From contig OY282459.1 of the NCBI GenBank assembly GCA_958296285.1, forward strand, positions 1,208,336-1,272,335: 64,000 bases of DNA. Direction: 5' to 3'. Positions 3,851 through 55,916 of the stretch are shown here, one piece after another. Under the pieces are notes generated by a model. It was not told where the DNA came from. It saw only the letters and a list, made by a program, of their open reading frames with translations, and ran no database searches. Position 1 is the first letter of the stretch, and every line of letters starts with the position of its first letter. This DNA comes from an uncultured Alphaproteobacteria bacterium. Its GTDB lineage: Bacteria > Pseudomonadota > Alphaproteobacteria > JAPOUT01 > G958296285. Made by a program: the position numbers and the translations under genes.

Positions 3851-5031
3851 TAGCCCGCGCCGGGGCGGAAAGACCCCGCCGAGAAACTTTTTAGACGGAA
3901 AGGATTCAGAATCATATAGAGGCGACTCAGAAGATAAATCACGATAGGCGTCAGATAAAGAAGAGGAATATAAAGGCTGTTCTTCTTCGCCTGCTGGACG
4001 AAAATCACGCCCAAAACCTGAATCGCCGCCATGACGAAGGAAAGAATCACGATGCGTCCGGCAATGTCATGACGGCTGCCGCGCGCCGGCGCGATCGCGT
4101 CCAGGGCGAGGAGCGTGAAGATCAGGCAGTGCAGGACGAGAACCAAATATCTATGCCCTGTCGCCAAGCGCAAGACCCGATCCTTCTCGCCAATCCCGTC
4201 AGGCGGAAAGAAAAGATCGCCGGGATAAAGTTCCCGCGCCTTGCGACTCACCCAATCCACCGGCCCCATCAGCGCCGAGAGATCGTAGGAATATTTGTCA
4301 AAAGAGAGAATCGTCAATCCGTTCTCGCGCGCGCGATCATTCTGTTGGATGATCCCGTTGAACATGACCAGACGCGCGCCGGTCTGGCTTCGCAGAAGCG
4401 CCCCCGTCTCGGCGATATAGGTCAGCGGACGATCGCGATCGCGCGAATCCTGAAACAGAATGCCGTGAATCTGTCCGTCCAAATCGTATTTCCGAATGAA
4501 TGCCGTGATCCCGTAAGCCGGATTGGTGAAAGCGCCGGCGCGCAGCATCGTGGAGGCGATGTCCGCCCGAACCTGATACAATTTCACGCGGCGCAAACGC
4601 TCGCTCCATGGACGCGGATAAAAAGCCACCAGCAAAGTCACGATCGCCACGAATAAGCCGAAAATCATCGCAGGACGCATCAGATTGCGGCGGCTGAAGC
4701 CCAGCGCGAACATCGCCGTGATCTCATTCTGCGAATCCAAATTGTAGAGCGCGTAAAGGAGCGCGATGAAAAGCGACAGCGGCAAAGCCATCGGCAGCGC
4801 CGCGATCAGCCAATAGGACAGAATCTCCAAATAGGTCGCGAAACTCTGCCCATTGATCACGATGATGTTCAAGACCTGAATCGCCGTCGGAAGCGTCAGC
4901 AGAATCGTCAGCGTGCAAGCCGTGATCGCGAAAGGCAGAAAAATCTGCGTCAGGATATAGCGCGTCAGACGCCGCATTTCAGGAAAGCGCATGGCGGCAA
5001 GACGCGCGGCTGAGAAAACCGAATAAACCAT
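3850..5031 (-). CDS. lptF: LPS export ABC permease LptF
   Basis: 393-aa YjgP/YjgQ-type membrane protein, first gene of the pair. Its stop overlaps the lptG start by 1 nt (TAATG). Confidence 0.8.
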   Translation of the reverse strand: MVYSVFSAARLAAMRFPEMRRLTRYILTQIFLPFAITACTLTILLTLPTAIQVLNIIVINGQSFATYLEILSYWLIAALPMALPLSLFIALLYALYNLDSQNEITAMFALGFSRRNLMRPAMIFGLFVAIVTLLVAFYPRPWSERLRRVKLYQVRADIASTMLRAGAFTNPAYGITAFIRKYDLDGQIHGILFQDSRDRDRPLTYIAETGALLRSQTGARLVMFNGIIQQNDRARENGLTILSFDKYSYDLSALMGPVDWVSRKARELYPGDLFFPPDGIGEKDRVLRLATGHRYLVLVLHCLIFTLLALDAIAPARGSRHDIAGRIVILSFVMAAIQVLGVIFVQQAKKNSLYIPLLYLTPIVIYLLSRLYMILNPFRLKSFSAGSFRPGAG

Positions 5032-15526: not shown

Positions 15527-17431
15527 ATGACAAAACGCCCGCCGAGCGCGCCGCGCCCTCCGCTCCCGATCGTCATTGTCGGACATGTGGATCACGGAAA
15601 ATCCACCGTCATCGGAAGACTCCTCTTTGAGACGAACAGTCTTCCGGAAGGCAAGGCGGAATCTGTCCGCGCCACCTCTGAAAAGCGCGGAATGCCCTTT
15701 GAGTGGGCTTTCGTCCTAGACGCTCTCCAAGCCGAGCGCGATCAGGGAATCACGATTGACACGACCCAAATCCGCTTCCAAACGAAAGCCAGACGCTACA
15801 TTCTGATAGACGCGCCGGGCCATGTGGAATTCTTGAAAAATATGATCACCGGCGCGGCGCAGGCCAAGGCGGCGCTTCTCGTCATGGACGCCGAAGAGGG
15901 CGCGCGCGACCAAACCCGACAGCACGCCTTCCTTCTCCATCTGATGGGATTGGAGACGATCGCCGTCATCATCAATAAGATGGATCGGGTCGGCTATCAG
16001 GAGCGGCGCTTTCAAGAACTGCGAGACAGCATCGGGCGGACGCTCCATGAGATGAATCTCAAAGTTTCGGGGGTCATTCCGGTCTCGGCGCGGGAGGGCG
16101 AGAATATCGCCGCGCCATCGGCTCATATGGCGTGGCATCGGGGCGAGACGCTGACGGCGCTGTTGGATTCTTTGCCTGACGCTCCATCGCAGAGCGAGAA
16201 GCCTCTGCGCTTTCCGATTCAGGACATCTACAAATTTGACGAGCGCCGCATCATCGCCGGGCGCATAGAGAGCGGGAGGCTGAAGGAGGGGGATCGTCTG
16301 CTGTTCTCGCCGTCCAATAAGAGCGCTGTCGTTTCCAGTTTGGAGAGCTGGCCGCCTCGTGAAGGGCGCGGATTCTCGGCGGAGGCGGGCGAGGCGGTTG
16401 GCGTCATGTTGGACAGGCAGCTTTTCTTGGAGCGCGGCGAGCTGGCGAGTCATCAGAGCGATCCGCCTTTTTTGAGCGATATCTTTCGCGCGCGGATTTT
16501 TTGGCTTGGCAGGCATCCGCTGACGCCTTCCGTTTCTTTGGTGATGAAGCGGGCGACTTCGGAGTTTTCTGTCGTTTTGCAGAGCGTGGAGCGCGTCATA
16601 GACGCGGCGTCGTTGGAGGAGGTTTCTGGCGAGAGGGTTTCGCGCAATCAGGTCGCGGACATTATTTTGCGCGCGCCGTCTTTGCAGGCGCTGGATTCTT
16701 TCGGCGAGAATGGTTTGATGGGGCGGTTTGTTTTGCTTGATGGTCGTGATATTGCCGGCGGCGGGGTTGTGTCGTTGGATGGTTATGCGGATCAGCGTCC
16801 TATTTTGGAGGCGCGGATGCGTGATGTCTCGCGCGTTTCGCACAAGGTTTCGCCGCGCGAGCGCGAGCTTCGCGCGCGTCATCGGGGCGGCGTTTTGTGG
16901 CTGACGGGCTTGTCGGGATCGGGGAAATCCACGCTTGCTTTCGCGTTGGAGAAGACGTTGTTTGATTTGGGTTATGGGGTTTATGTTTTGGACGGCGACA
17001 ATATTCGTCATGGGTTGAGCGAGGATTTGGGATTTTCGGTTGAGGATCGTTCTGAGAACATTCGGCGCGTGGCTGAGGCGGCGTCTCTTTTCGCGGATGC
17101 GGGGTTTGTGGCGCTTGTGTCGTTCATTTCGCCGATGCGGTCGGACAGGGCTCGGGCGCGGGGGATCATTCCGAATTTTCATGAGGTTCATGTCAGCGCG
17201 GATTTAGAGACGTGCGAGGCTCGTGATCCGAAGGGGTTATATAAGCGGGCGCGTGGGGGTGAGATTGAGGATTTTACGGGGGTATCGGCGGATTATGAGG
17301 TTCCTGAGGGGGCGGAGTTGGTTTTGGATACGGGGGTTGAGGGGGTTGAGGATTCTTTGCGGCGGTTGGTGGAGTATGTTGAGGGGCGGTTTCGGTTGGT
17401 TCCGGAGGGCGTTTCGGATTACGAGATTTGA
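15527..17431 (+). CDS. cysN: Bifunctional sulfate adenylyltransferase subunit 1 / adenylylsulfate kinase
   Basis: GTPase motifs [14 protein letters not shown] and NKMD. The C-terminal APS kinase has [18 protein letters not shown] and FISP. Confidence 0.9.
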
Positions 17432-17432
17432 T

Positions 17433-17633
17433 GGCTTGCTCCCGTTTTAGTGGCTTGCTCCCGTTGAGGGGGGTTTGGGGGGCTAGCCCCCCAAAAAAAG
17501 AGGGGGATCGGGGGGGAATCCCCCCCGAAAAGCGCGTGGGTGGGGTGGGGAAAAAGCATTTGCGAAGCGAGTGAAACGAGCAAGCAAATGCGACCCCACC
17601 CACGCGCCCCCTGCTAGAAGAGCTCTTGCGAGA
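17433..17633. repeat. Palindromic repeat family, locus R1 (left arm)
   Basis: GGCTTGCTCCCGTT (x2), then GGGGGGTTTGGGGGGCTAGCCCCCCAA, then GGGGGGGAATCCCCCCC. A nested hairpin follows: GCGTGGGTGGGGT...GCATTTGC...GCAAATGC...ACCCCACCCACGC. It ends with the centre CTGCTAGAAGAGCTCTTGCGAG. Confidence 0.9.
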
Positions 17634-17697
17634 AGACCTTCTTGCTTCGCGGCTTCGTCCGTGTCAGAATCAAATCACCTTCACAGGAGACCAAAAG

Positions 17698-17967
17698 ATG
17701 TGGGCGACCATCACGCAGGCGATAGGATCGGGGGGAACGGCTCTCGCTTTGATAGCCATCGGCATTGTTTTGGCTAAAGTCTTTCAGCACGACAGAGACA
17801 TTCACGCTCTGCAAGAGCAGGTGGCGACTCTCATCGCGCAGGTTCAGAAACTTGAGGTTTCCATTGCCAAACTGCAAGTTTCCATCGCCAATTTGAACGA
17901 TCTCGTCAGACAGACTTTGCAATCGCCGCAGAGTTCGGGGACAGAAAAACCGCCTCTTGACAGATAA
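17698..17967 (+). CDS. Small membrane-anchored coiled-coil protein (hypothetical)
   Basis: ATG at 17698 preceded by CAGGAGA. It has an N-terminal TM helix (GGTALALIAIGIVLAKVF) followed by heptad-like LQEQVATLIAQVQKLEVSIAKLQVSIANL. It sits between inverted arms R1 and R2. Confidence 0.5.
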   Translation: MWATITQAIGSGGTALALIAIGIVLAKVFQHDRDIHALQEQVATLIAQVQKLEVSIAKLQVSIANLNDLVRQTLQSPQSSGTEKPPLDR

Positions 17968-17970
17968 GAG

Positions 17971-18137
17971 CCTCTTGAAGAGCTCTTGCGAGCAGGGGGC
18001 GCGTGGGTGGGTCGCATTTGCTCGCTCGCTACTCTCGCTTCGCAAATGCTCTTTTCCCACCCACCCACGCGTTTTCGGGGGGATTCCCCCCGACCCCCCC
18101 TTTTCTCAAGGGGGGCAAGCCCCCCTTGACCCCCCTT
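17971..18137. repeat. Palindromic repeat family, locus R2 (right arm, inverted relative to R1)
   Basis: Reads as the reverse complement of the R1 modules: GAAGAGCTCTTGCGAGCAGGGGG, GCGTGGGTGGGTCGCATTTGC...GCAAATGC, GGGGGGATTCCCCCC, GGGGGGCAAGCCCCCC, CACGGGAG. Confidence 0.9.
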
Positions 18138-18224
18138 CACGGGAGCCCCCAATTGCAACATAGAGATAAAAAAATTGACCCCCACCCCTTTGCCCTATCC
18201 TAATCCCTCGCCTAATCTCAAATC

Positions 18225-19574
18225 ATGACACACATCACCATCATCATCCTCGCCGCAGGACAAGGCAAACGCATGGGAACCCAAACCCCCAAAGTCCTCA
18301 ACCCCATCGCAGGACAATCCATGCTCGCCCACACCCTCAACGCCGCCAAACACACCCCCAACGCCAAATATATCCTCGTCTCCCCACCCAACCAAAAAAC
18401 CATCACAGCCGAAGCCAAACGCGTCATCCCCCATATCGCCATCGCAACCCAAACAAACCCAAAAGGAACAGCCCACGCCGTCCAAATCGCGCTCCAATCA
18501 ACCCCAACCCCCCAAAACAAAGGACATATCCTCATCCTCTATGGCGACACCCCCCTGATCCAACAATCCACAATCGCCAAAATGCTACAAACCCTCAACG
18601 AAAACGCCGACTGCGCCATCTGCGCCTTCCACGAACCCCACGCCCCAGGCTACGGAAAACTCCTAGAAAACGCGAAGGGCGAAACCATCGCCATCGCCGA
18701 AGATGACGGCAGCCCCATCCCATCGCATCTCCGCGACACAGGATGGAAAAACGCAGGCTTCCTCGCTATCCACGCCGAAAAATTAACCCCGCTCCTCCCT
18801 AAAATCACCAGCGACAACCCCCAAAAAGAACGATACCTCACCGATCTTGTCGCCCTCGCCGCCGCGCGAGGCTTCTCATGCCGCCGCGTGGAATGCGAAA
18901 AATCCGAATCTCTCGGCGCGAACAACCTCGCCGAACTCGCCCAGCTGGAAGCCGTCTATCAAAACCGCCTCCGCCAAAAAATGATGCGAAACGGCGTCCG
19001 CCTCACAGCCCCCGACACCGTCCATTTCTCCTTTGACACCCGCCTGGAAAAAGGCGTCTCGGTCGCGCCCTATGTCGTCTTCGGGCGAGGAGTCCGGGCA
19101 GGGCAGGGCGCGACCATCCACGCCTTCTCCCATATTGAAGGCGCGGAAATCGCCGAAGGCGCGGAAATCGGCCCCTTCGCGCGGATTCGTCCGGGCGCGT
19201 CCATCGGCAAAGAGGCGCGCATCGGCAATTTCGTGGAAGTCAAAAACAGCGCGCTCGCCAAAGGCGTCAAAGCGAGCCACCTCGCCTATATCGGAGACGC
19301 CGAAATCGGCGCGGAAGCGAATATCGGCGCAGGCGTCATCACATGCAACTATGACGGCGCGGAGAAACATAAGACCAAAATCGGCGACAGCGCCTTTGTC
19401 GGCTCCAACAGCGCTCTGATCGCGCCTGTCCGCATAGGGGCGGGCGCTTATGTCGGCTCCGGCAGCGTCATAGAAGAGGATGTCGCCCCCGATTCTCTCG
19501 CCCTCGCCCGCGCCAAACAGATCGTCAAAACAGGCTGGGCGGCGAAATGGCGCAAGCGCCGCGGCTCGGCTTAA
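18225..19574 (+). CDS. glmU: Bifunctional GlcNAc-1-P uridyltransferase / GlcN-1-P acetyltransferase
   Basis: LAAGQGKRM N-terminal motif, C-terminal left-handed beta-helix hexapeptide repeats, followed by glmS. Confidence 0.9.
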   Translation: MTHITIIILAAGQGKRMGTQTPKVLNPIAGQSMLAHTLNAAKHTPNAKYILVSPPNQKTITAEAKRVIPHIAIATQTNPKGTAHAVQIALQSTPTPQNKGHILILYGDTPLIQQSTIAKMLQTLNENADCAICAFHEPHAPGYGKLLENAKGETIAIAEDDGSPIPSHLRDTGWKNAGFLAIHAEKLTPLLPKITSDNPQKERYLTDLVALAAARGFSCRRVECEKSESLGANNLAELAQLEAVYQNRLRQKMMRNGVRLTAPDTVHFSFDTRLEKGVSVAPYVVFGRGVRAGQGATIHAFSHIEGAEIAEGAEIGPFARIRPGASIGKEARIGNFVEVKNSALAKGVKASHLAYIGDAEIGAEANIGAGVITCNYDGAEKHKTKIGDSAFVGSNSALIAPVRIGAGAYVGSGSVIEEDVAPDSLALARAKQIVKTGWAAKWRKRRGSA

Positions 19575-26169: not shown

Positions 26170-26894
26170 TGAAGAAGCCGATCGCGATTGTTTTGGGCGT
26201 TGGCGCGTCTGACGGTTTGGGCGCGGCGCTGGCGAGGCGCTTCGCTTCGGGCGGCATGGAGGTCGTCATTTCGGGTCGGACGGAGGAGAGGATCGCCAAA
26301 ATCGCCGAGGAGATCGGCGCGTCAGGGGGGAAGGCGCATTTTCATGCCGCCGATACCACTGATGCGGGGTCGGTAAGGTCTCTTTTTGAGATGGCGAGCG
26401 GGAAGGGCGGCATTGGCGCGGTTCTTTACAATGTTGGGAACAATATGCCTCTTCCTTTCGCTGATTTGACGCAGGAGATGTTTGAGGATTTTTGGCGCGT
26501 TTGTTGTTTCGGCGGATTCATCACGGCGAAGGCGGCGCTTCCCTTTTTGGAGGATGGCGGGGGGAGTTTATTTTTCACTGGGGCTTCGGCTTCCATGCGG
26601 GGTCGCGCGATGTTCGCGCATTTTGGATCGGCGAAGGCGGCGCTCAGGACTTTGGCGCAGGCTTTGGCGAAGGAATATGGGCCGCGGGGCGTTCATGTTG
26701 GTCATGTTGTTGTGGATGGGGCGATTGACGGGTCTAGGGTTCGCGAGCATTTTGCCGAGTATTTGGAGGGGTTGGGCGAGGATGGGTCGTTGAAGCCTGA
26801 TCATATTGCGGAGGCTTTTTGGATGATGCATAATCAGCATCGGAGCGTTTGGACGTTTGAGTTGGATGTTCGTCCGTTTAAGGAGAGTTGGTGA
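26166..26894 (+). CDS. Short-chain dehydrogenase/reductase
   Basis: N-terminal glycine-rich GVGASDGLGAALA, about 240 aa, ATGA overlap with the LLM gene. Confidence 0.8.
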   Translation: MMKKPIAIVLGVGASDGLGAALARRFASGGMEVVISGRTEERIAKIAEEIGASGGKAHFHAADTTDAGSVRSLFEMASGKGGIGAVLYNVGNNMPLPFADLTQEMFEDFWRVCCFGGFITAKAALPFLEDGGGSLFFTGASASMRGRAMFAHFGSAKAALRTLAQALAKEYGPRGVHVGHVVVDGAIDGSRVREHFAEYLEGLGEDGSLKPDHIAEAFWMMHNQHRSVWTFELDVRPFKESW

Positions 26895-26895
26895 G

Positions 26896-27114
26896 TCTCC
26901 CGTTAAGGGGGGTTTGGGGGGCTTAGCCCCCCAAGAAAACCAAGCGGGCGTAGCCCGCTACAGGTCGGCGGGCGTGGCGCAACGAAGCAAGCGAGGCGAG
27001 CATAGCGAGACGAGCTTGCGAGAAGCCCGCCGACCCCCCTGCTAGAAGAGCTGATAGGCGGGCTTGCGCCCGCCTTGTTTTTCGTGGGGGGCATAATGCC
27101 CCCCACACCCCCCT
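26896..27114. repeat. Palindromic repeat family, locus R3 (left arm plus short right arm)
   Basis: CTCCCGTTAAGGGGGGTTTGGGGGGCTTAGCCCCCC, AGCGGGCGTAGCCCGCT, the GTCGGCGGGC...GCCCGCCGAC long hairpin, a truncated centre, the GGCGGGCTTGCGCCCGCC hairpin, and GGGGGGCATAATGCCCCCC. Confidence 0.9.
27057..27084 (+). terminator. Intrinsic-terminator-like hairpin inside R3
   Basis: GGCGGGC-TTGC-GCCCGCC followed by TTGTTTTTCG, downstream of the SDR operon on the same strand. Confidence 0.5.
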
Positions 27115-27160
27115 TTTTTAAATCTTGACAAAACTCTTCGCCCAACCTAAAAGCAAAACC

Positions 27161-31146: not shown

Positions 31147-31302
31147 GATGTTTCCTTTTCTTATAGGGGTTTGATTGAGTGGGGTTATTATTCATGGGGG
31201 TTGCGTTTGATGTCAAGGCGGGCGGCGAGCCGCCGCGGGCATCTTTTGCATGGAGTGGAGTTTGTTTTTGCCGCAGGGGAACTAATGCATAGAAGCTAGA
31301 GG

Positions 31303-31514
31303 TGAAGGGGGGTTTGGGGGGCTAGCCCCCCAAGAAAAACCAAGCGGGCGTAAGCCCGCTATAGTCGGCGGGCGTGGCGCAACGAAGCAAGCGAGGCGAG
31401 CATAGCGAGACGAGCTTGCGAGAAAGCCCGCCGACCCCCCCTGCCGCTTGCATGAGTGGCGGGCTTCGCCCGCCTTGTTTTTTCGCGGGGGGTGTCGCAC
31501 CCCCCGCACCCCCC
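31303..31514. repeat. Palindromic repeat family, locus R4 (near-identical to R3, same orientation)
   Basis: It shares with R3 even the variable loop GTGGCGCAACGAAGCAAGCGAGGCGAGCATAGCGAGACGAGCTTGCGAGAA. Confidence 0.9.
31334..31360 (-). terminator. Intrinsic-terminator-like hairpin inside R4 (minus-strand sense)
   Basis: On the minus strand it reads AGCGGGC-TTAC-GCCCGCT followed by TGGTTTTTCTT. It lies downstream of the minus-strand Sel1 gene. Confidence 0.45.
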
Positions 31515-32111
31515 TTATTTGTCAGAATTTGCGTTAGGTTGCCAGTTCCGCGACAATCTCTGACCTTCGGCAATCTGTTCCTGCGTCATGGACTGTTCCA
31601 GTAAGTTAAGACATACGAGGGCGGATTCATGCCCTCGCGCCGATGCCAAATTGCACCACTTGTAAGCCTTCACATAATCCTTCGGAACGCCCCATCCTAG
31701 ATGATACATCAAGCCGAGAACACCCTGCGCCCATGCGTCGCCCTGATCGGCAGCCTTGCGGTACAAGCGCGCGGCTCTTTGATAATCCTTCGGAACGCCT
31801 TTGCCTTCGTAATACATTCTGCCGAGAAGAACTTGCGCCGATGCGTTGCCCTGATCCGCAGCTTTGTAATACCAGAGCAGAGCTTTCCGATAATCCTTCC
31901 CAACGCCCCAGCCATTGGCATACATCCAGCCGAGAAAGCCCTGCGCCGATGCCTCGCCCTTCTCGGCAAGAGGCAGGCATAAACGATAGGCGGTTTTATA
32001 GTCCTTGCGAACAGCTGCCGCCTCGCAGGAGTCGGCTGAAGCAGGAGGCGCGGCATGAAAAAACGCCAACGCGAAGAGACCCATAAAGAGCGCCGCCCGC
32101 TTATTCATCAT
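31515..32111 (-). CDS. Sel1-repeat protein, secreted
   Basis: Signal peptide and four Sel1 units. It is a close paralog of the N-terminal half of 39533..40906. The stop codon abuts R4. Confidence 0.8.
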   Translation of the reverse strand: MMNKRAALFMGLFALAFFHAAPPASADSCEAAAVRKDYKTAYRLCLPLAEKGEASAQGFLGWMYANGWGVGKDYRKALLWYYKAADQGNASAQVLLGRMYYEGKGVPKDYQRAARLYRKAADQGDAWAQGVLGLMYHLGWGVPKDYVKAYKWCNLASARGHESALVCLNLLEQSMTQEQIAEGQRLSRNWQPNANSDK

Positions 32112-32253
32112 CGCCCTCTTCCATTAACCCTAGCCTAGCCAAGATTATAGCACCTTTTCTCAGCAAGAACTCTTTAGGATTGCGCGAAAAGCCTAGAACA
32201 TCTATTGTCATCAAGACCCTACCATCGCCTCTGGCGCAAAAGAGGAGCGAGAC

Positions 32254-32475
32254 ATGAAGAATCGCGGAGCGACCCTTAAGGATAAGCGGAAAGCAAGCCT
32301 CTTAATCCGATTCTTGAAAGAGTTTGATGCTCATCCTTTGGTGCTTTTTGATCTTGGAGGTGGGAGTTTTGGGCGCTTTGGCAGAGATCACGCTGACGCG
32401 GACGCTTTAACATCGGACATGGCAGCCATCGGACGCGATATGCATAAGGTTCTTGAGAGAATTGACCGAGGATAA
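32254..32475 (+). CDS. Hypothetical 73-aa protein
   Basis: ORF only, with no recognisable motif. It overlaps the next ORF in another frame. Confidence 0.3.
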   Translation: MKNRGATLKDKRKASLLIRFLKEFDAHPLVLFDLGGGSFGRFGRDHADADALTSDMAAIGRDMHKVLERIDRG

Positions 32476-32878
32476 AAATAAAGATCCTTCGGGCGAGAAT
32501 ATCGCGCCATCTTCTCGCAAGGAAGATGGCGTTCCTGCGGTTGTTCGTCAGAGCGCTCATTTTTCGGGCCCCATTCCGCCTCCTCAAATTCTAAAGCAGT
32601 ATGGGGACGTCATGCCCGGCTTGCCTGAAAAGATTGTCGCGAGTTGGGAGGCGGAGCAGAGGCATCGTCGGGGCATGCAGAGCAAAGCGCAGATCATGGC
32701 GTTTATTTTGGTTTTGCTAGCTTTCGGGATCACTGTGTTGTTGATTTTTGAGAGGCAATATATTGCGGCGGGCGTATTTGGGAGTTTTTCCACGTTATTT
32801 GTTGTTCTCGGCGCGGGGTTGTTTAATTATTTCGTTCATCTGCTTCGGGGACGCAGAGCAGCCGACAATGAGGAATGA
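32453..32878 (+). CDS. DUF2335-like membrane protein
   Basis: IPPPQILKQYGDVMPGLPEKIVASWEAEQRHRR followed by two TM helices, the DUF2335 pattern as I recall it. The start codon (TTG) is uncertain. Confidence 0.6.
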   Translation: MRELTEDKNKDPSGENIAPSSRKEDGVPAVVRQSAHFSGPIPPPQILKQYGDVMPGLPEKIVASWEAEQRHRRGMQSKAQIMAFILVLLAFGITVLLIFERQYIAAGVFGSFSTLFVVLGAGLFNYFVHLLRGRRAADNEE

Positions 32879-32905
32879 ATTTTCGCTGTTCCTCTCTGCT
32901 CGCTT

Positions 32906-33052
32906 GAGCTCTTGCGAGCAGGGGGTCGGCGGGCTTCTCGCGGGCTTGCCTACGGCTTCGCCCGCTTCGTTGCGCCACGCCCGCCGACTATTCGGGGGGA
33001 TTCCCCCCGATCCCCCCTTCTTCGCGGGGGGCTTCGCCCCCCACACCCCCCC
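32906..33052. repeat. Palindromic repeat family, locus R5 (right arm only)
   Basis: GAGCTCTTGCGAGCAGGGGG, the GTCGGCGGGC...GCCCGCCGAC hairpin, GGGGGGATTCCCCCC, GGGGGGCTTCGCCCCCC. Confidence 0.9.
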
Positions 33053-33118
33053 TTGACCAAAAACATATTCCCTCCTAACTATATGCAAATCATTCTCACT
33101 CGCAAATAAAGCAACCCC

Positions 33119-34907: not shown

Positions 34908-34929
34908 TTAGGCTCGGCGTTTTGACGCG

Positions 34930-35090
34930 CTCCCGTTAAGGGGGGTTTGGGGGGCTAGCCCCCCAAAAAAAACCAAGCGGGCGAAGCCCGCTATAGTCGG
35001 CGGGCGTGGCGAAACGAAGCGGGCGCAGCGCGTAGCGCAAGCCCGCGAGAAAGCCCGCCGACCCCCCTGAACGCCAAGAGCTCTTGCGAG
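34930..35090. repeat. Palindromic repeat family, locus R6 (left arm)
   Basis: CTCCCGTTAAGGGGGGTTTGGGGGGCTAGCCCCCC, AGCGGGCGAAGCCCGCT, the GTCGGCGGGC...GCCCGCCGAC hairpin, and the centre CAAGAGCTCTTGCGAG. Confidence 0.9.
34965..34992 (-). terminator. Intrinsic-terminator-like hairpin inside R6 (minus-strand sense)
   Basis: On the minus strand it reads AGCGGGC-TTC-GCCCGCT followed by TGGTTTTTTTT. It lies downstream of the minus-strand small ORF 35112..35435. Confidence 0.5.
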
Positions 35091-35111
35091 CGGGGAAATC
35101 TTGTTGAGGCT

Positions 35112-35435
35112 TCACCCGAACATGATTCGGATGAAAGCCATCGCCATAAGACCCAATATCCCTCCGCACATCCATTTTAGCAGGGTGATGTCGGCTCGGA
35201 CTTCTCCGAGGCCTTTTTGCATCTCGGCTCGGAGTTCTCCGGAGTTTTTTTCCATTTCGGCTCGGATTTCTCCGAAGCCTTTTTCCATGTCGGCTCGGAG
35301 TTCTCCGATTTGCACTTCCATACGCCGCAACCGCGCTTCTTCGCGGACGTTTTCTATGGCTTCTACGGCGGCGGTGGCTTTGGCGTCATCCACATTCGCG
35401 GCTTTGAGCGCGTCATAGACTGCGACAAGGCTCAT
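35112..35435 (-). CDS. Small tail-anchored coiled-coil protein (DUF1640-like, from memory)
   Basis: Repetitive LRADMEKGFGEIRAEMEKNSGELRAEMQKGLGEVRADI followed by the C-terminal TM WMCGGILGLMAMAFIRIMF. It sits between inverted arms R6 and R7. Confidence 0.55.
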   Translation of the reverse strand: MSLVAVYDALKAANVDDAKATAAVEAIENVREEARLRRMEVQIGELRADMEKGFGEIRAEMEKNSGELRAEMQKGLGEVRADITLLKWMCGGILGLMAMAFIRIMFG

Positions 35436-35535
35436 GGTTTTCTCCTTCGAATGGTATCTGTGTAGCAGTTTTCTGTCTCACCCGCAATTTCCTAACGAGA
35501 GAAAGAGAAAAAAGCGCCCCACGCGCCCCATGCCG

Positions 35536-35705
35536 CAAGAGCTCTTTTAGCAGGGGGGTCGGCGGGCTTTCTCGCGGGCTTGCGCTGTCGCGCTTCGCCC
35601 GCTTCGTTGCGCCACGCCCGCCGACTTTTCGGGGGGGATTCCCCCCCGATCCCCCTCTTTTTTTGGGGGGCTAGCCCCCCAAACCCCCCTCCACGGGAGC
35701 AAGCC
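35536..35705. repeat. Palindromic repeat family, locus R7 (right arm)
   Basis: CAAGAGCTCTTTTAGCAGGGGGG, the long hairpin, GGGGGGGATTCCCCCCC, GGGGGGCTAGCCCCCC, CACGGGAGCAAGCC. Confidence 0.9.
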
Positions 35706-35728: not shown

Positions 35729-36775
35729 ATGAAAGAAAATATCCGCCCAGCCCTCCTCACCCTCTCCATCAGCGCATTCCTCTGCGCCGCGCCATCCGCC
35801 CGCGCCAACCCCTGCTCAGAGGCCTATGAAAGCGACAAACGCAAAGAAACAAAAAAAGCCTACAGCCTCTGCCTGCCCCTCGCCGTGGAAGGAGACGCCG
35901 AAGCCCAAAAAAACCTCGGATGGCTCCACGCCCACAGCAACCTCGTAACCCAAGATGACGACGTCGCCGTCTATTGGCTCCGCAAAGCCGCGAAGCAAGG
36001 CAATGCGACGGCAGAATATCTCCTCGGCGGAATGTATGAGGACGGCAGAGGAGTCCCGAAAAATAACGAGAAAGCCATGCGATGGTATCTCAAAGCCGCG
36101 AAACAAGGCCAGGCTCTCGCGGAAAATGAACTTGGCTGGATCTATCATAAAGGCACGATCGCCCCGCAAGATTACGCGAAAGCCCTGCGATGGTATCGCA
36201 AAGCCGCCAAGCGTGGCGATGAATGGGCGCAATTTCATCTGGGCAAGATGCTTGAAGAAGGCGAAGGCGTGGAGCAAGATTTCGCCGAAGCCGCGCGCCT
36301 CTATCGCCAAGCGGCGAAGCAGGGCTTGGCATGGGCGCAGTTTCATCTGGGCATGATGTATCAAAAAGGCAAGGGCGTTCCAAAAGACGCGGCGAAAGCC
36401 ATCTTCTGGTATCACGAAGCCGGCAATAAAGGGTGGTCGGAGGCGATCCACGCCCTAGGCGCGATGCACGACAAAGGAGACGGCGTCAAACAGGACAAGG
36501 AGAAAGCCCTTGAATGGTATGGGATAGCCGCTCAGCGAGGCTACGCGGAGTCGCAATATGCGCTCGGCGTGATGCATCGGGACGGCGAGAGCGTGGAGCA
36601 AGATTTGGTGGAAGCGCATAAGTGGATCGGGCTCGCGTCTCCGCACATGAAAAAGGCTCTCAAGGAACTCCTCCTCCTGCAAAAGCAAATGACGCGCGCC
36701 CAAATCGCCGAAGCGCAAGCTCTCGCCCGCGAATGGCACAAAGGTCGGAATGGCAAAGGAAGCGAACCTCCATAA
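35729..36775 (+). CDS. Sel1-repeat protein, secreted (348 aa)
   Basis: Signal peptide and about eight Sel1 units (..A..WY.KAAKQG.A.A...LG.MY..G.GV..D). Confidence 0.85.
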   Translation: MKENIRPALLTLSISAFLCAAPSARANPCSEAYESDKRKETKKAYSLCLPLAVEGDAEAQKNLGWLHAHSNLVTQDDDVAVYWLRKAAKQGNATAEYLLGGMYEDGRGVPKNNEKAMRWYLKAAKQGQALAENELGWIYHKGTIAPQDYAKALRWYRKAAKRGDEWAQFHLGKMLEEGEGVEQDFAEAARLYRQAAKQGLAWAQFHLGMMYQKGKGVPKDAAKAIFWYHEAGNKGWSEAIHALGAMHDKGDGVKQDKEKALEWYGIAAQRGYAESQYALGVMHRDGESVEQDLVEAHKWIGLASPHMKKALKELLLLQKQMTRAQIAEAQALAREWHKGRNGKGSEPP

Positions 36776-39017: not shown

Positions 39018-39182
39018 CTCCTGTGAAGGGGGGGTTGGGGGGCTAGCCCCCCAAGAAAAGGGGGTTCGGGGGAAACCCCCGAAAAGTCGGCGGGCGTGGC
39101 GAAACGAAGTCCACAAGCCCGAAGGGCGCAGTGAAACGAAGCGGGCGAAGCCGAAGGCAAGCCCGCGAGAAAGCCCGCCGAC
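39018..39182. repeat. Palindromic repeat family, locus R8 (left arm, no centre)
   Basis: CTCCTGTGAAGGGGGGTTGGGGGGCTAGCCCCCC, GGGGGAAACCCCC, and the GTCGGCGGGC...GCCCGCCGAC hairpin with an enlarged loop. Confidence 0.85.
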
Positions 39183-39532
39183 CTTCCCTTATCCTATCTA
39201 AATAGGAGCGCTAACAAGGGGGACTTCTGCGATGAGATTTAACCTTGACTGGCTTTGGACCAGGCTTATTGCCCTTCCGCACAACGCGAGATACGGGCTT
39301 TTTGGGAGGGCATTTACTGCTTTTCTTTGCCATAATAATTGTCTCCTGTGAGGTTAGTTGTGGCGAGAGCGCCATGATCGTCTATATATGGGGTGGAACC
39401 CCCAGATTTTCAATGACTATTAAACAAAATAAACAAAAATTCTCATTGCCTCGTAGAGGCGAGCGCACAAGAAGACCACCGCCATCGCCCTGCATCGCGT
39501 GAATTCATGCTTTTCTGTCGATTTTTCGTATA

Positions 39533-40906
39533 ATGGACGCTATGGGAAAGGATAAGAAAAACGCCGCGATAAAATGGAAGGCTTGCGCCGCCATCTTTTC
39601 TCTATGCGCGGGGATGTTATTTCATGCCGTGCCTCCTGCTTCAGCCGACTCTTGCAAGGCGGCAACTGTTCGTGGGGACTATGAAACCGCCTATCGTTTA
39701 TGCCTGCCTCTTGCCGAGAACGGAGACGCATTGGCGCAGGGCCTTCTCGGCTGGATGTATGAGAATGGCGAGGGCGTTCGGAAGGATTATCAGAGGGCCG
39801 CGCGCTGGTATCGCAAAGCCGCCGATCAGGGAAACGCATCGGTACAGGTCAAACTCGGCTTGATGTATGACGAGGGCAAGGGCGTTCCGAAAGATTATCA
39901 GGAAGCCGCATACTGGTATCGCAAAGCCGCCGATCAGGGCGAGGCACGGGCACAATTCAATCTCGGCATTATGTATCTTAAAGGCGATGGCGTTCCGAAG
40001 GATTATCAGCAAGCCCTGCGCTGGTTTCGCAAAGCCGCCGATCAGGGCGAGGCACGGGCGCAGTACAATCTCGGCGTGATGTATGACTTCGGCAAAGGCG
40101 TTCCGAAGGATTATCAGGAAGCTTACAAGTGGTATAGTTTGGCGGGGGCAAAAGGGCATAAGAGCGCTCGTCATAATCTTAACCTGTTAGAGCGATCCAT
40201 AACGGGGGGGCAGATTGCCGAAGGTCAGAGATTGGCGCGGAACTGGAAGCCTGGCGCAAGCTCCGATGCGGAAAAGTCTCCTGGCAAGAGGCCTCCCTCC
40301 GGCAACGGATCCGGATTTCTTGTCAGCGATAAAGGTCATATTCTCACGAATGAGCATGTCGTCTCCGATTGTCGTTCTTTTCGTGTTTCGCCCCCTGGCG
40401 ATCCCGCCATTTTGCGCGGGCGCGATAAAGCCAACGATTTGGCGTTGTTGCAAGTGCCTCCGCATAAATCCATGCGCCCCGTTTCCTTTCAGGAGCGATC
40501 GGCGCAGCTCGGCAGCGATGTTCTCGCCGTGGGCTACCCTTTGCGCGGAAAGGCAGGACGCGGCTTGAATATCACAAAAGGCACAATAAGCGCTCTTTCG
40601 GATGGCGATGGCGACTCGCGCCTTCTCCAATTCACAGCCCCCGTTCAGCCCGGCAATAGCGGCGGGCCTTTGCTGGACGAGTCGGGACTAGTCGTTGGCG
40701 TCATTGTGAGCCGATTGGAGGAAACGGCGGGCGGGCGTCCTGTGCAGAATGTTAACTTCGCTATCCGCGCTAAAGTGGCGCGCGCATTTCTAGACAGCAA
40801 CTCTGTCCTCTATGAAAGCGGAAAAGGCGGTTGGCTGTCGCCAAAAGCAGAGACGGTCGCCGAGAATGCCCGCGCCCATACCGTCATGGTGGAGTGCTAT
40901 CAATAA
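39533..40906 (+). CDS. Secreted Sel1-repeat / trypsin-like (S1, DegP-type core) serine protease fusion
   Basis: The N-terminal half has Sel1 units, paralogous to 31515..32111. The C-terminal half has GSGFLVSDKGHILTNEHVV (His), NDLALLQV (Asp) and GNSGGPLLD (Ser). Confidence 0.8.
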   Translation: MDAMGKDKKNAAIKWKACAAIFSLCAGMLFHAVPPASADSCKAATVRGDYETAYRLCLPLAENGDALAQGLLGWMYENGEGVRKDYQRAARWYRKAADQGNASVQVKLGLMYDEGKGVPKDYQEAAYWYRKAADQGEARAQFNLGIMYLKGDGVPKDYQQALRWFRKAADQGEARAQYNLGVMYDFGKGVPKDYQEAYKWYSLAGAKGHKSARHNLNLLERSITGGQIAEGQRLARNWKPGASSDAEKSPGKRPPSGNGSGFLVSDKGHILTNEHVVSDCRSFRVSPPGDPAILRGRDKANDLALLQVPPHKSMRPVSFQERSAQLGSDVLAVGYPLRGKAGRGLNITKGTISALSDGDGDSRLLQFTAPVQPGNSGGPLLDESGLVVGVIVSRLEETAGGRPVQNVNFAIRAKVARAFLDSNSVLYESGKGGWLSPKAETVAENARAHTVMVECYQ

Positions 40907-40921
40907 GCCACTCGCTCGCAT

Positions 40922-41060
40922 GAGCTCTTGCGATGCAGGGGGGTCGGCGGGCTTCTCGCCTCGCTACGCTCGGCTTCGTTGCGCCACGCCCGCCGACCTT
41001 TCGGGGGGATTCCCCCCGACCCCCCCTTTCTCAAGGGGGGCAAGCCCCCCTTGACCCCCC
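40922..41060. repeat. Palindromic repeat family, locus R9 (right arm)
   Basis: GAGCTCTTGCGATGCAGGGGGG, the long hairpin, GGGGGGATTCCCCCC, GGGGGGCAAGCCCCCC. Confidence 0.9.
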
Positions 41061-45358: not shown

Positions 45359-45390
45359 GGTGTTATCATAGTGCATAGGAGCTTGAAGGT

Positions 45391-45694
45391 GCAGGGGGGT
45401 GTGGGGGGCTAGCCCCCCGCGAAAAGGGGGTTCGGGGGAAACCCCCGAAAAGCGCGTGGGTGGGGTGGGGAAAAAAGCATTTGCGAGCAAACGCAGTGCA
45501 GCGAGCAAATGCGACCCCACCCACGCGCCCCCTGCTCGCAAGAGTTTTTGCGATGCAGGGGGGTCGGCGGGCTTTCTCGCGCACTTGCGCTACGCGCTTC
45601 GTGCGCTTCGTTTCGCCACGCCCGCCGACTATTCGGGGGGATTCCCCCCGACCCCCCCTTTTTCGCGGGGGGTCTCCGACCCCCCACACCCCCC
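45391..45694. repeat. Palindromic repeat family, locus R10 (complete element, both arms)
   Basis: Left arm with a W-type core hairpin (GCGTGGGTGGGGT...), the centre CTGCTCGCAAGAGTTTTTGCGATGCAG, and a right arm with a G-type core hairpin (GTCGGCGGGC...). Confidence 0.9.
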
Positions 45695-53849: not shown

Positions 53850-53890
53850 GCGGCTCCCGTTGAGGGGGGTTTGGGGGGCTAGCCCCCCAA

Positions 53891-53916
53891 GAAAAACCAA
53901 GCGGGCGAAGCCCGCT
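53891..53916 (-). terminator. Intrinsic-terminator-like hairpin in the R11 left arm (minus-strand sense)
   Basis: On the minus strand it reads AGCGGGC-TTC-GCCCGCT followed by TGGTTTTTC. It would end transcripts of the SBP gene after they cross the element. Confidence 0.45.
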
Positions 53917-54088
53917 ATAGTCGGCGGGCGTGGCGAAACGAAGCGAGCGTTAGCGAGCGAGAAAGCCCGCCGACCCCCCTGCTAGAAGAGCTCTTGTAAG
54001 CAGGGGCGGTTGGGGGGTGGGTCGCTTTTCCTCGTTTCGCTACGCTTCACTCGGAAAAGCTTTTTTCCCACCCCACCCCCCAACCTAT

Positions 54089-54118
54089 AGGCTGCCTTAC
54101 GGCAGCCTTGGTTTTTTT
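54089..54118 (+). terminator. Intrinsic-terminator-like hairpin in the R11 right arm
   Basis: AGGCTGCC-TTAC-GGCAGCCT followed by TGGTTTTTTT, downstream of moaA on the same strand. Confidence 0.5.
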
Positions 54119-54143
54119 GGGGGGCAAGCCCCCCAAACCCCCC

Positions 54144-55916
54144 TCAACGGGAGCCCCCCTCAAGCCACCACAAATCCGCCGCCGTCCCATATAACGAACC
54201 CCTCTCAGGAAACCCAACCCAATCCCATGCCGCTAACCACTGATCCCCCGAATAAAACAACGGAATCACATAAAACCCCGACAACAAAACCCGATCCAAC
54301 GCCCTCACCGCATCCCGAAAACCCCCACGATCCTCAGCCCCAACCAACGCCCCTATCAAAAAATCCACAGCCCCAGACCGAACCCCCGCATAATTCCTGC
54401 TCCCCTCAAACCCCGCCGCCTCACTCCCCCAATAAAAAGCCTGCTCATTCCCAGGCGACAACGATACCCCCCAACGATAAAAAATCATGTCAAAATCAAA
54501 ATCCCTCATCCGACGCTCCCCCTGCGCCGAATCCACAAAACGAACCCGAGCCTCCACCCCCGCCAACCGCAACTGCCGCGCGAAAACTAAAGCCAACCGC
54601 TCCTCATGACGCCGAACACACAAAATCTCAAAACGAAAAACCTCGCCCCCAACATCCCGAAGAACGCCGCCCTCTAAAAACCACCCCGCCTCCCCAAAAA
54701 GCGCGAGCGCCGCCCTCCGACCCGCCCGATTGTGCCGACCCTCCGAAACAGGCGGACGATAACCGCCCTCCAAAATCTCCGGCGCAACCTCATCAGCAAA
54801 AGACGCAAGCAAAGCGCGCTCGCCAGCGCTCGCCCCCAACCCATGAGACGATAAATCCGAATTGGCGAAAAAACTCCCAATCCGCCGATACTTCCCATGA
54901 AAAAGATGCGCATTAATCCACTCAGCATCCAACAAAAGCGAAAGAGCCTCGCGGACGCGCCTGTCCGAAAAAATCCCCCGCCGCGTGTTGAAAACAAGAC
55001 CCCACATGCCAGACGGCGACCCCGTCGGAATCTCCTTCAACAGAATGCGTCCGCGATCCCTCGCCGGCGCGTCATATTGAACAGCCCAGCGCGAAACATC
55101 TCGCTCCGCGCGCGCGTCAATCTCGCCCGCCTTAAAAGCCTCAAAAGCCGAACCCTCATCACGAAAATAACGATACAAAACCCGATCCGCATTAAATCGC
55201 CCGCGATTGACAGGCAAATCCTTCCCCCAATAATCCAAATCGCGCTGATAAAGAATCTTCTCGCCCGGCGCGATCTCGGCAACCCGATACGCCCCGCTCC
55301 CTAAAGGCGTTTTAAGAGAGGTCTCGTCAAACCTATGCTTCGTGAAATAAGCCCGCGACAAGATCGGCATCAAACCCATAATGAGCGGCATCTCCCTGTC
55401 GCTCCCCGCCTTGAAAACAAAACGGACGCCCCGCGCGCCAACCTTCTCCATCCGAGCGATCTTGCCATAATAAAAACGATGATTCGGACGACCCTTCTCC
55501 CGAAGCGTCCGCGCCGAAAACAAAACATCCTCCGCGCGGACAGGAGAGCCGTCAGAAAAACGCGCCTTCGGATGAAGCGTGAAAAGAACGGAGCTTCTGT
55601 CCGGCGGCGTCTCAATCGTCTCGGCAAGAAGACCATAAAGCGTGAAAGGCTCGTCCCATCCGCGCGCCATCAGACTCTCATAGACAAATTCGCGCAAGCC
55701 GGCGGCAGGCTTCCCCCGAATGATGAAAGGATTGACGCTGTCAAACGTCCCGCTGCGCGAAAGATGAAGCGTCCCGCCTTTCGGCGCGTCAGGACGAACA
55801 TAGGGAAAATGAGAGAAGCCTCTCTGATAAAGCGGCGCGCCATGCATGGCGATCGCGTGAGAATCGGCGAGAGCGCCCCCGGCGTCCGCCGTCAGAAAAG
55901 CGCAGGCGAGCGCCAA
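54144..55916 (-). CDS. Family-5 extracellular solute-binding protein (orphan ABC SBP, YejA-like)
   Basis: 590 aa, SBP_bac_5-like throughout. No permease or ATPase gene is adjacent. The last codons and the stop lie inside the R11 terminal repeat. Confidence 0.8.
   Translation of the reverse strand: MALACAFLTADAGGALADSHAIAMHGAPLYQRGFSHFPYVRPDAPKGGTLHLSRSGTFDSVNPFIIRGKPAAGLREFVYESLMARGWDEPFTLYGLLAETIETPPDRSSVLFTLHPKARFSDGSPVRAEDVLFSARTLREKGRPNHRFYYGKIARMEKVGARGVRFVFKAGSDREMPLIMGLMPILSRAYFTKHRFDETSLKTPLGSGAYRVAEIAPGEKILYQRDLDYWGKDLPVNRGRFNADRVLYRYFRDEGSAFEAFKAGEIDARAERDVSRWAVQYDAPARDRGRILLKEIPTGSPSGMWGLVFNTRRGIFSDRRVREALSLLLDAEWINAHLFHGKYRRIGSFFANSDLSSHGLGASAGERALLASFADEVAPEILEGGYRPPVSEGRHNRAGRRAALALFGEAGWFLEGGVLRDVGGEVFRFEILCVRRHEERLALVFARQLRLAGVEARVRFVDSAQGERRMRDFDFDMIFYRWGVSLSPGNEQAFYWGSEAAGFEGSRNYAGVRSGAVDFLIGALVGAEDRGGFRDAVRALDRVLLSGFYVIPLFYSGDQWLAAWDWVGFPERGSLYGTAADLWWLEGGSR

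Follow-up and report, generated by a model that had tools for sequence, protein, structure and literature searches.

The question raised by this locus is why two neighboring genes that are read from the same strand should carry opposite synonymous codon biases. The genes, cysNC and glmU, lie in a 64,000-nucleotide stretch of contig OY282459.1 (assembly GCA_958296285.1, an uncultured alphaproteobacterium), which we refer to as the window, and they are separated by a pair of repeats termed R1 and R2. An earlier note, made from the sequence alone, claimed that codon usage in both genes switches according to the side of the repeat pair on which they lie and the distance from it, and it favored local mutation pressure over a cysNC domain of different origin. 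This observation was understated: the pattern belongs to a family of palindromic repeat elements, not just to two genes.

Opposite gradients in cysNC and glmU

The hand counts in the earlier note were exact: positions 17341-17400 contain 30 G, 5 C, 5 A and 20 T, and positions 18241-18300 contain 23 C, 11 G, 19 A and 7 T. In sliding windows along the plus strand, composition is ordinary up to ~16.2 kb and changes over 16.3-17.5 kb, with the GC skew up to +0.49 and the AT skew down to -0.45 by 17.1-17.5 kb. Skew is approximately zero within 17.55-18.0 kb, is flipped in a zone at 18.1-19.0 kb (GC skew of -0.62 and AT skew of +0.49 at 18.3-18.6 kb) and is again approximately zero by 19.05 kb. We also used a keto skew, defined as G+T-C-A and termed keto3 when computed at third codon positions. 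Over 300 nucleotides (nt), the keto values of +0.43 on the left and -0.55 on the right lie 6-9 standard deviations outside a background that comprised window DNA more than 2 kb from any element and a syntenic relative, contig L081. Per 100 nt, keto skew is +0.2 to +0.54 in the left flank, within cysNC, out to ~1.1 kb, and +0.36 to +0.58 on the minus strand of the right flank out to ~900 nt.

The gradient is present at third codon positions in both genes. Toward the repeat, third-position counts per 30 codons of cysNC drop for C (12-15 to 0-1) and A (5-7 to 0) and rise for G (to 17-19) and T (to 10-15); the first ~270 codons of glmU have only 1-3 G and 0-2 T at third positions per 30 codons, with partial recovery by ~19.05 kb. 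Both gradients are monotonic, with Spearman correlations of keto3 with distance of -0.93 (p=8e-10) in cysNC and +0.90 (p=1e-5) in glmU, and none of 5,000 permutations of synonymous codons within each gene matched the observed gradient. The proposed dependence on side and distance was thus borne out. At two-fold codons, where a synonymous change is possible by transition only, C:T and A:G are 9:24 and 2:29 in the left flank and 26:6 and 28:1 in the right flank, against a glmS baseline of 49:44 and 42:55. At four-fold sites, G:T is 64:36 and C:A is 73:27, whereas pure transitions acting on the baseline predict ~46:54. By codon position (1/2/3), skew is +0.39, +0.03 and +0.69 in the cysNC flank, -0.31, -0.30 and -0.81 in the first 200 codons of glmU, and +0.16, -0.09 and +0.05 in glmS. 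The non-coding promoter region of glmU (18153-18224) is likewise skewed. Beyond 2 kb from any element, a single strong keto outlier remains, at 2600-2900 (-0.25 to -0.32, mostly AT skew); it lies in minus-strand genes with no element motif nearby and is probably ordinary gene composition.

The relative L081 shows what these genes look like when no repeat is present. A GlmS search of genome contigs yielded distant relatives only (at most 46% identity), which were useless for polarizing changes; L081, a 470-kb contig from ENA, is the only relative closer than ~50% identity (59% for GlmU and 62-64% for CysNC). Its gene order matches that of the window in both cysH-cysNC-(two small genes)-glmU-glmS and ChsH2-like-thiolase-TauD-DUF502-recG(-)-Sdh5-mfd, and against this shared order three junctions of the window hold insertions, which consist of the elements along with Sel1, Sel1-protease and DUF6285+APH genes. 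No elements were found in L081, and its skew never exceeds +/-0.26 across 21 kb. At six orthologous gene ends that adjoin elements in the window, keto3 is +0.73 to +0.83 (3' ends) and -0.27 to -0.83 (5' ends) in the window versus -0.17 to +0.32 in L081. Since L081 lacks both the elements and the skew at these ends, the skew is a derived trait of this lineage that is linked to the elements. For the two genes that prompted the question, the APS-kinase end of cysNC and the start of glmU are ordinary in L081 (keto3 of +0.12 and +0.32, versus +0.78 and -0.83 in the window), which agrees with the earlier preference for local mutation pressure over a foreign domain.

At the protein level, conserved columns of CysNC and GlmU are kept, synonymous sites shift directionally, and the contrast in keto3 is unchanged when limited to codons with an identical amino acid. 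Strongly conserved columns diverge no more than they do in L081 in a relative-rate test, a result that spoke against degeneration of the flanking proteins, and that idea was abandoned. The columns that differ from L081 tell of direction. Residues encoded by G/T-rich and C/A-rich codons number 45 versus 12 in CysNC 300-634 of the window and 18 versus 45 in L081; in GlmU 1-270, they number 17 versus 59 and 32 versus 30, respectively. The distal parts of both proteins show no comparable reversal; in distal GlmU, L081 is the richer in C/A-coded residues (22 versus 8 in differing columns). When single-step amino-acid changes were derived against the GlmU consensus, G>A (7) and T>C (3) led, but the result was noisy, with transversions as well and 21 changes that need several steps.

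Gene calling is disturbed in the skewed DNA, where long spurious antisense open reading frames (ORFs) appear, for example at 15716-17191 on the minus strand. The recG ORF (43253-45541, minus strand) extends through the element at 45.4 kb, and the public glmU call in strain L082 begins 32 codons downstream of the likely start, within the skewed zone.

A family of palindromic elements and its flanks

The R1/R2 pair is real, and its inverted arms (17441-17615 and 17991-18152) are the two halves of one element. We defined the family by the motifs of R1 and R2 that recur across the window and by reading those sites (Table 1). From its outer end inward, a half-element comprises a terminal GCTCCCGT(T/G)(G/A)AGGGGGG, a G6CTAGC6 hairpin, a second short G/C hairpin and a long hairpin of 70-80 nt. 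Two types of long hairpin occur, A (GCGCGTGGGTGGGG...) and B (GTCGGCGGGCGTGGCG...GCCCGCCGAC), and the right half at 54.0 kb has a third variant of the stem. Inward of the long hairpin lie CCCCCTGC and then, at the center, a palindrome around AGAGCTCT. An element consists of two such halves in inverted orientation, the second being the reverse complement of the first, and sometimes holds cargo between them. Paired arms measure 54-78 nt and are 72-100% complementary. Folded as single-stranded DNA (ssDNA), the left half-element at 17441..17615 reaches -55.7 kcal/mol (z=-6.6), and its terminator-like hairpin on the minus strand faces outward; the element at 53.85 kb (53845-54160) reaches -123.6 kcal/mol (z=-13.4), with its termini paired in an outer stem of more than 40 bp and outward-facing terminators in both halves. 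Each half in the family has an outward-facing hairpin that resembles an intrinsic terminator, and a full element would therefore stop transcription from both sides. The halves are purine-rich on their own strand, which folds slightly more stably than its complement at all 13. An Rfam search of the window returned three tRNAs only, and the elements match no known RNA family.

When flanks were folded onto the strand of their half-element, the outward flank had an excess of G+T on that strand at all 13 half-elements in the window. The opposite biases on one coding strand that the earlier note described are therefore an instance of a polarity that holds whatever the gene orientation. Aggregate skew is highest at the element boundary (GC skew of +0.46, TA skew of +0.24 to +0.37) and fades to zero within ~1.2-1.5 kb; the strongest sites, at 17.4/18.15 kb and 53.85/54.16 kb, reach 1.1-1.7 kb. 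On each side, the strand whose 3' end faces the element is the one depleted in C and A. Genes aimed at an element have a G+T-rich sense strand at their 3' end (cysNC, SDR, ChsH2-like, TauD, moaA and the minus-strand SBP_bac_5), and genes aimed away from one have a C+A-rich sense strand at their 5' end (glmU, Sel1, the minus-strand recG and sdhE/mfd), flanking genes being assigned by Pfam. The shift is largest at codon position 3, smaller at position 1 and smallest at position 2. Because the sign is set by the side of the element and not by gene orientation, and because the codon positions rank in this way, the pressure acts on DNA and not on translation, transcription or codon choice; the skew points to nucleotide-level pressure filtered by protein constraint.

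Cargo and inserts between the halves have no strand skew. This cannot serve as proof of outward-only action, an argument weakened by the polymorphism of the cargo between strains. The use of "solo" half-elements as proof of one-sided action was similarly weakened: the 26.9-kb site varies between strains on its right side, and the sites at 31.3 and 33.0 kb are better read as one cargo element.

Table 1. Repeat elements of the window with their flanks, inserts and adjoining genes
Feature	Position	Strand	Description
cysNC (CysN GTPase fused to CysC APS kinase), 634 aa	15527..17431	+	ORF; Pfam GTP_EFTU and APS_kinase; third-position gradient
G+T-rich outward flank of left half-element, within cysNC	16300..17440	+	C and A depleted on + strand
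Left half-element (R1)	17441..17615	+	Terminal GCTCCCGTTGAGGGGGG, G6CTAGC6 hairpin, G7AATC7 hairpin, ~75-nt type A hairpin (GCGCGTGGGTGGGG...CCCCACCCACGCGC)
Central insert between the 17.4-kb halves, 375 nt	17616..17990	+	89-aa ORF 17698-17967 with one transmembrane (TM) segment and a coiled coil, no Pfam match at gathering score; keto ~0; strain-variable
Right half-element (R2)	17991..18152	-	Reverse complement of left architecture
Outward flank of right half-element, C+A-rich on + strand	18153..19100	-	- strand G+T-rich; glmU promoter region and first ~290 codons
glmU, 449 aa	18225..19574	+	ORF; 59% identity to GlmU of L081
Left half-element with short terminator-like right end	26895..27115	+	G+T-rich flank ~26200-26894; right side a strain-variable block with no skew
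Element with ~1.5 kb cargo	31300..33055		Sel1 gene (-) and DUF2335 membrane protein; outward flanks weakly skewed
Element with ~450-nt insert	34925..35702		107-aa coiled-coil/TM ORF (-) in insert; flanks: ChsH2-like gene 3' end G+T-rich, Sel1 gene 5' end C+A-rich
Element with Sel1 + trypsin-like protease cargo gene (39533-40906)	39018..41060		Flanks: TauD 3' end, DUF6285(-) 3' end
Compact element between divergent recG(-) and sdhE/mfd(+)	45395..45692		Long hairpins differ (A left, B right); recG and sdhE/mfd 5' ends both C+A-rich on sense strand
Compact ~310-nt palindromic element between convergent moaA(+) and SBP_bac_5(-)	53850..54158		Strongest and longest flanks in window; + strand G+T-rich at 52100-53849, C+A-rich at 54159-55500; keto3 +0.79 and +0.83 on the sense strands of moaA and SBP_bac_5

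We compared three strains: that of the window, that of contigs L082 and L097 (ERZ19489054), and that of L096 and L098, which belong to a 1.72-Mb circular contig of ERZ19489113. The window is identical to neither recoverable assembly. Flanks are 97.6-99.5% identical among the three strains and their skew is common to all; element interiors differ between strains at all five loci compared. At 17.4 kb, segment 17607-18066, which holds the small ORF and the inner hairpin of the right arm, is inverted relative to L082 (9239-9690), a strain that is 98-99% identical there; in L096, the insert is absent, the long hairpin of the left half is of type B and not type A, and an extra outer module of ~67 nt is present. 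In strain B, the 35-kb element contains an extra helix-turn-helix gene, the 39-41-kb site lacks the protease cargo and is a compact element of ~385 nt, and the 45.4-kb element is only ~83% identical to that of the window between flanks that are 98-99% identical. At 53.85 kb, long-hairpin types have been exchanged and an extra module is present. Stable flanks around divergent interiors identify the elements as hot spots of inversion and of conversion between copies, and the central segment that is inverted in one strain implicates the inverted arms in inversion. At the cysNC/glmU element, inversion may serve to switch the 89-aa TM/coiled-coil ORF.

Recent changes were polarized by majority among the three strains over 33.5 kb, with flanks folded onto the putatively exposed strand. 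Per base, flank single-nucleotide polymorphisms (SNPs) amount to 0.0164 for C>T (19/1162), 0.0147 for A>G (13/885), 0.0104 for G>A (25/2400) and 0.0061 for T>C (11/1802), against ~0.0095 for background transitions. The asymmetry is 1.6-2.4-fold per base; 32 of the 68 flank transitions come from 33% of the bases (z ~2.5 by normal approximation). Flank changes that raise and lower G+T are about equal in number (37 versus 43). A 1.8-fold asymmetry in rate matches the ~2:1 composition of the flanks; the skew is thus at or close to a steady state and continues to be fed. These data are compatible with mutation and selection alike and do not separate them.

Several further features of the elements were observed. 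Right after the cysNC stop codon, the left half at 17.4 kb has a tandem duplication of its outer terminus (17432-17470; TGGCTTGCTCCCGTT twice), and L096 has the same arrangement with a shorter spacer. Some half-elements have an extra module of ~70-85 nt (GGCGGCGAGCCGCC...GGCATCTTTTGCATGGA...TTTTTGCCGCAGGGGAACTA.TGCATAGAAGCT) outside the G6CTAGC6 hairpin, which moves between loci across strains (31217-31300 in the window, 9745-9830 in L096, and 4660-4745 and 18150-18235 in L098). One end of contig L097 (contig_12 of ERZ19489054, position 1) falls at the 45.4-kb element, ~290 nt before mfd; assemblies seem to be interrupted by the elements. Cargo ORFs encode Sel1-repeat proteins, a Sel1-protease, a DUF2335 membrane protein and small TM/coiled-coil proteins. 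Genes within or beside elements repeatedly encode Sel1 repeats (31515-32111, 35729-36775 and 39533-40906, one of them fused to a trypsin-like protease), without a counterpart at those junctions in L081, and the elements may carry secreted or effector-like genes in this 1.7-Mb genome. At 56468-58486, a protein of 672 aa joins an MFS transporter to a second APS-kinase domain, an unusual fusion since cysNC supplies APS kinase; a partial paralogue follows downstream of it.

The outer hairpin has a wider distribution. The element 25-mer GGGGGGTTTGGGGGGCTAGCCCCCC has 13 exact matches in metagenome contigs (L083-L095), all from unrelated bacteria with a GC content of 37-67% and none with flank skew; no match was found in viral contigs. 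The outer hairpin alone is therefore insufficient for skew. This 25-mer is often preceded by (A)AATCCT, is sometimes in tandem (L083) and is shared across phyla.

Proposed break and resection weighed against other causes

We consider the best explanation, in which our confidence is moderate, to be repeated breakage or nicking at the palindromic elements with subsequent 5'-3' resection that exposes the 3'-ending strand of each flank to damage. The DNA would be broken or nicked repeatedly at the elements, either by a structure-specific nuclease of the SbcCD type that cuts an extruded hairpin or by a transposase-type cut at the ends of cargo elements bounded by terminal inverted repeats (TIRs), through excision or 3'-end nicking in trans. 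Resection would proceed outward from the break and leave the 3'-ending strand single-stranded for up to ~1-1.5 kb, namely the plus strand to the left of an element and the minus strand to its right. Exposed C would become U and exposed A hypoxanthine, and the synthesis that closes the gap, in the course of repair from the sister chromosome, would read these bases as T and G. Over time, flanks would be pushed to G+T on the exposed strand, most strongly by the element, and synonymous sites would saturate; weakly constrained residues would drift the same way, with selection holding the conserved ones. It may be speculated that the Chi-like sequences which the halves have on their own strand contribute, as a RecBCD/AddAB-type enzyme would spare the 3' strand only beyond the half, which would fit the outward-only pattern. 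A dedicated strand-specific nickase or deaminase recruited by the half-elements is less likely.

The polarity observed at all 13 half-elements is that expected for the 3' tails of a resected two-ended break and so supports resection. Single-strand exposure leaves a G+T signature in replication skew and in mitochondrial DNA as well. The proposed damage chemistry, deamination of C to U and of A to hypoxanthine in ssDNA, follows by analogy with these and with hypermutation of yeast ssDNA (PMC6786661, PMC3521656). SbcCD cuts a chromosomal palindrome in each replication cycle, and the break is repaired from the sister (PMC3315005, PMC4213011); resected double-strand breaks yield mutation clusters coordinated by strand, with a change of strand at the break (PMC6786661). 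Three other processes that might start from an element fail on direction: outward strand displacement or nick translation and a fixed priming-site (ssi) model both predict the opposite polarity, and outward transcription from the element predicts the opposite sign.

A number of points weigh against break and resection. Break, resection and damage chemistry are all inferred from sequence. At two-fold codons, both C>T and A>G are near complete on the presumed exposed strand, A>G at least as complete as C>T, whereas spontaneous deamination of adenine is far slower than that of cytosine. The excess of G and C at four-fold sites over the transition-only expectation calls for an extra preference for these bases, the source of which would be selection, biased gene conversion or transversions. 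No transposase, nuclease or RAYT gene was found within the 64-kb window, nor are genes for SbcCD (or an Mre11/Rad50 homologue) and a RecBCD/AddAB-RecA pathway located there. A simple break at each half should expose the inner sides too, yet cargo is unskewed; this bears little either way, as cargo that is polymorphic between strains may be young. SNP density in the flanks is only ~1.15x background, with no strong current hypermutation visible, although saturated synonymous sites and constraint on the remaining C and A sites would hide it, and the recent A>G count (13) is below that of G>A (25). All the evidence comes from one lineage, namely three close strains and one distant relative.

A related scheme, which we think unlikely, dispenses with the double-strand break: hairpins would stall the polymerase and leave a template gap 5' of the block that extends to the next Okazaki fragment or repriming site. 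Such gaps would have the same polarity (plus strand on the left, minus strand on the right), the decay over ~1-1.5 kb equals about one Okazaki fragment, and the elements fold very stably as ssDNA, with the slight advantage of the own strand at all 13 halves. However, a block on the lagging strand should be commoner than a leading-strand block with repriming, and the two flanks would then be unequal. They are equal, with a mean integrated skew of ~2.6 each (summed from per-flank profiles), which favors a two-ended break. So do the abundant recombination in element interiors and the finding that flanks are strongest at 53.8 and 17.4 kb, sites described as compact palindromes with homologous arms. 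The inner sides of separated halves should block as well, but the cargo, which may be young, is unskewed. A pattern search of both strands of all halves found no canonical G-quadruplex motif, which leaves the G-quadruplex version of a polymerase block unsupported.

Selection instead of mutation strikes us as improbable. It would favor G+T on the 3'-ending strand to aid repair of a fragile site, or strands of G+T only and C+A only to keep flanks or transcripts unstructured. The halves hold strings such as GCGCGTG and GAAGCGG on their own strand, which we take to be akin to Chi sequences of other species. RecA prefers ssDNA rich in TGG or GT, and Chi resembles such sequence (PMC3763553, PMC5587095). 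The near-equal polymorphism fluxes fit any stationary process, selection included. However, selection would have to override codon preference and alter many residues in at least 10 unrelated housekeeping proteins; the ranking of codon positions and the smooth decay with distance are classical for mutation pressure filtered by selection; and neither L081 nor other bacteria with the same 25-nt hairpin motif show such a requirement.

Error-biased repair synthesis, to which we give little credence, would have the 3'-ending strand degraded and then resynthesized toward the element by a polymerase that forms chiefly G.T mispairs, with no mismatch repair. T.dGTP and G.dTTP are the commonest polymerase errors, and under this scheme the equal strength of A>G and C>T would be easier to account for. 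RecBCD-type enzymes do degrade the 3' strand before Chi (PMC10025158). Nevertheless, the error-prone enzyme would have to remake one strand only, whereas repair of a break replaces both strands near it.

Transcription-associated asymmetry, or codon or translational selection specific to genes, is very improbable. Non-template strands turn G+T-rich in highly transcribed genes, as are the sense strands of cysNC, moaA and TauD, but those of glmU, the Sel1 gene at 35.7 kb, recG and sdhE/mfd are C+A-rich by the elements, the switch occurs with distance inside single genes, and the promoter region of glmU is skewed too. Foreign origin, elements that inserted where the skew already switched, or an artefact of assembly or sequencing is scarcely credible: apart from a cysNC gradient that happens to start in the CysN part and cover the CysC domain, nothing favors it, whereas CysNC and GlmU align end to end with homologues and with the unskewed L081, the polarity is the same at every half-element, and both skew and intact ORFs are common to three independent assemblies, one of them the 1.72-Mb circular contig, the name of which suggests a HiFi assembler.

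Meaning of the pattern and comparison with known systems

If recurrent breakage at the elements is correct, the sequence has kept a natural record of end resection, including its polarity, symmetry and tract length. We tentatively propose that the palindromic cargo elements constitute hundreds of fixed sites of recurrent breakage in a 1.7-Mb genome, each of which would impose a heritable strand-polar hypermutation zone of ~1 kb, a form of evolutionary kataegis. The GT-rich 3' tails may further have been co-opted to speed RecA-mediated repair. A repeat family would then reshape adjacent essential genes through side effects of DNA repair, first at synonymous sites and afterwards at weakly constrained residues, and would be a source of local heterogeneity in mutation rate and composition that is currently ignored in bacterial genome evolution. 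It would also offer a sequence-only readout of break or gap sites and of the extent of ssDNA in an uncultured organism, with which the length of resection or gaps in nature could be tested. The skewed zones distort analyses of codon usage, horizontal transfer, GC skew and dN/dS and mislead gene callers.

The closest parallels concern broken DNA. Kataegis-like mutation clusters at resected breaks in yeast and cancer (PMC6786661, PMC3521656) share the strand switch at a fixed point, the damage to the 3'-ending strand and a tract set by resection. However, they are single somatic or experimental events and mostly affect C only (APOBEC, bisulfite), whereas the flanks in the window represent an evolutionary steady state at fixed sites in a bacterial germ line, with C>T and A>G equal and synonymous sites saturated. 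The SbcCD-dependent palindrome break of E. coli, repaired from the sister by RecBCD and RecA (PMC3315005, PMC4213011, PMC6061781), likewise involves a long interrupted palindrome in the chromosome and a tolerated, recurrent two-ended break with both flanks processed outward. That palindrome is engineered and no compositional effect has been described for it; the elements in the window are natural and multi-copy, and their cleavage is hypothetical.

Strand asymmetry on its own has precedents as well. In replication-associated GC and AT skew and in the gradient of the mitochondrial H strand, the exposed strand is also enriched in G+T, and the gradient follows exposure. Replication skew, however, acts at chromosome scale, with one switch each at origin and terminus and an amplitude of ~0.02-0.1. 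It was ruled out as the cause here by at least seven plus-to-minus switches within 64 kb (each ~1 kb, amplitude 0.5-0.6), the decay over ~1.5 kb and a plus-to-minus polarity opposite to that of an origin.

As repeats, the elements resemble repetitive extragenic palindromes (REPs), bacterial interspersed mosaic elements (BIMEs), REPINs and miniature inverted-repeat transposable elements (MITEs) in being multi-copy, intergenic, non-autonomous and terminator-like, with mosaic hairpin modules in inverted pairs that lie mostly at gene 3' ends (PMC3733652). The halves in the window are 125-175 nt long with three or four different hairpins and may enclose 0.4-2 kb of cargo, whereas a REP has 20-40 nt. 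The inverted doublets and intergenic sites fit REP/BIME/REPIN, but we rejected this identity on size, on the lack of a GTAG/CGTC tag in the aligned halves and on the lack of a RAYT gene in the window. To our knowledge, no flank skew has been reported for REPs. As in MITEs, TIRs are present, in the form of termini that the half-elements share in inverted orientation (GCTCCCGT(T/G)(G/A)AGGGGGG). No target-site duplication was visible by eye, and flank mutation in opposite directions would erase one.

GT-rich islands at Chi and the preference of RecA for GT (cited in PMC3763553 and PMC5587095) also place G+T on the future 3' tail. The enrichment in E. coli is slight, statistical and read as selection, whereas that in the window is extreme, graded and attached to a repeat family. 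Repeat-induced point mutation (RIP) leaks from fungal repeats into single-copy flanks, and there too a repeat family degrades the composition of neighboring unique genes over ~1 kb. However, RIP is premeiotic, confined to fungi, changes C to T on both strands and lowers GC content; in the window, the effect is strand-polar and leaves GC content almost as it was. A diversity-generating retroelement was rejected, as four bases are altered in a strand-polar manner over ~1 kb and neither a pair of template and variable repeats nor a reverse transcriptase was seen. In full-text searches of the literature, we found no report of kilobase-scale, strand-polar compositional gradients that flank a bacterial repeat family. 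We rate the pattern as an asymmetry of the type left by ssDNA exposure, at a new scale, in a new location and with a new cause.

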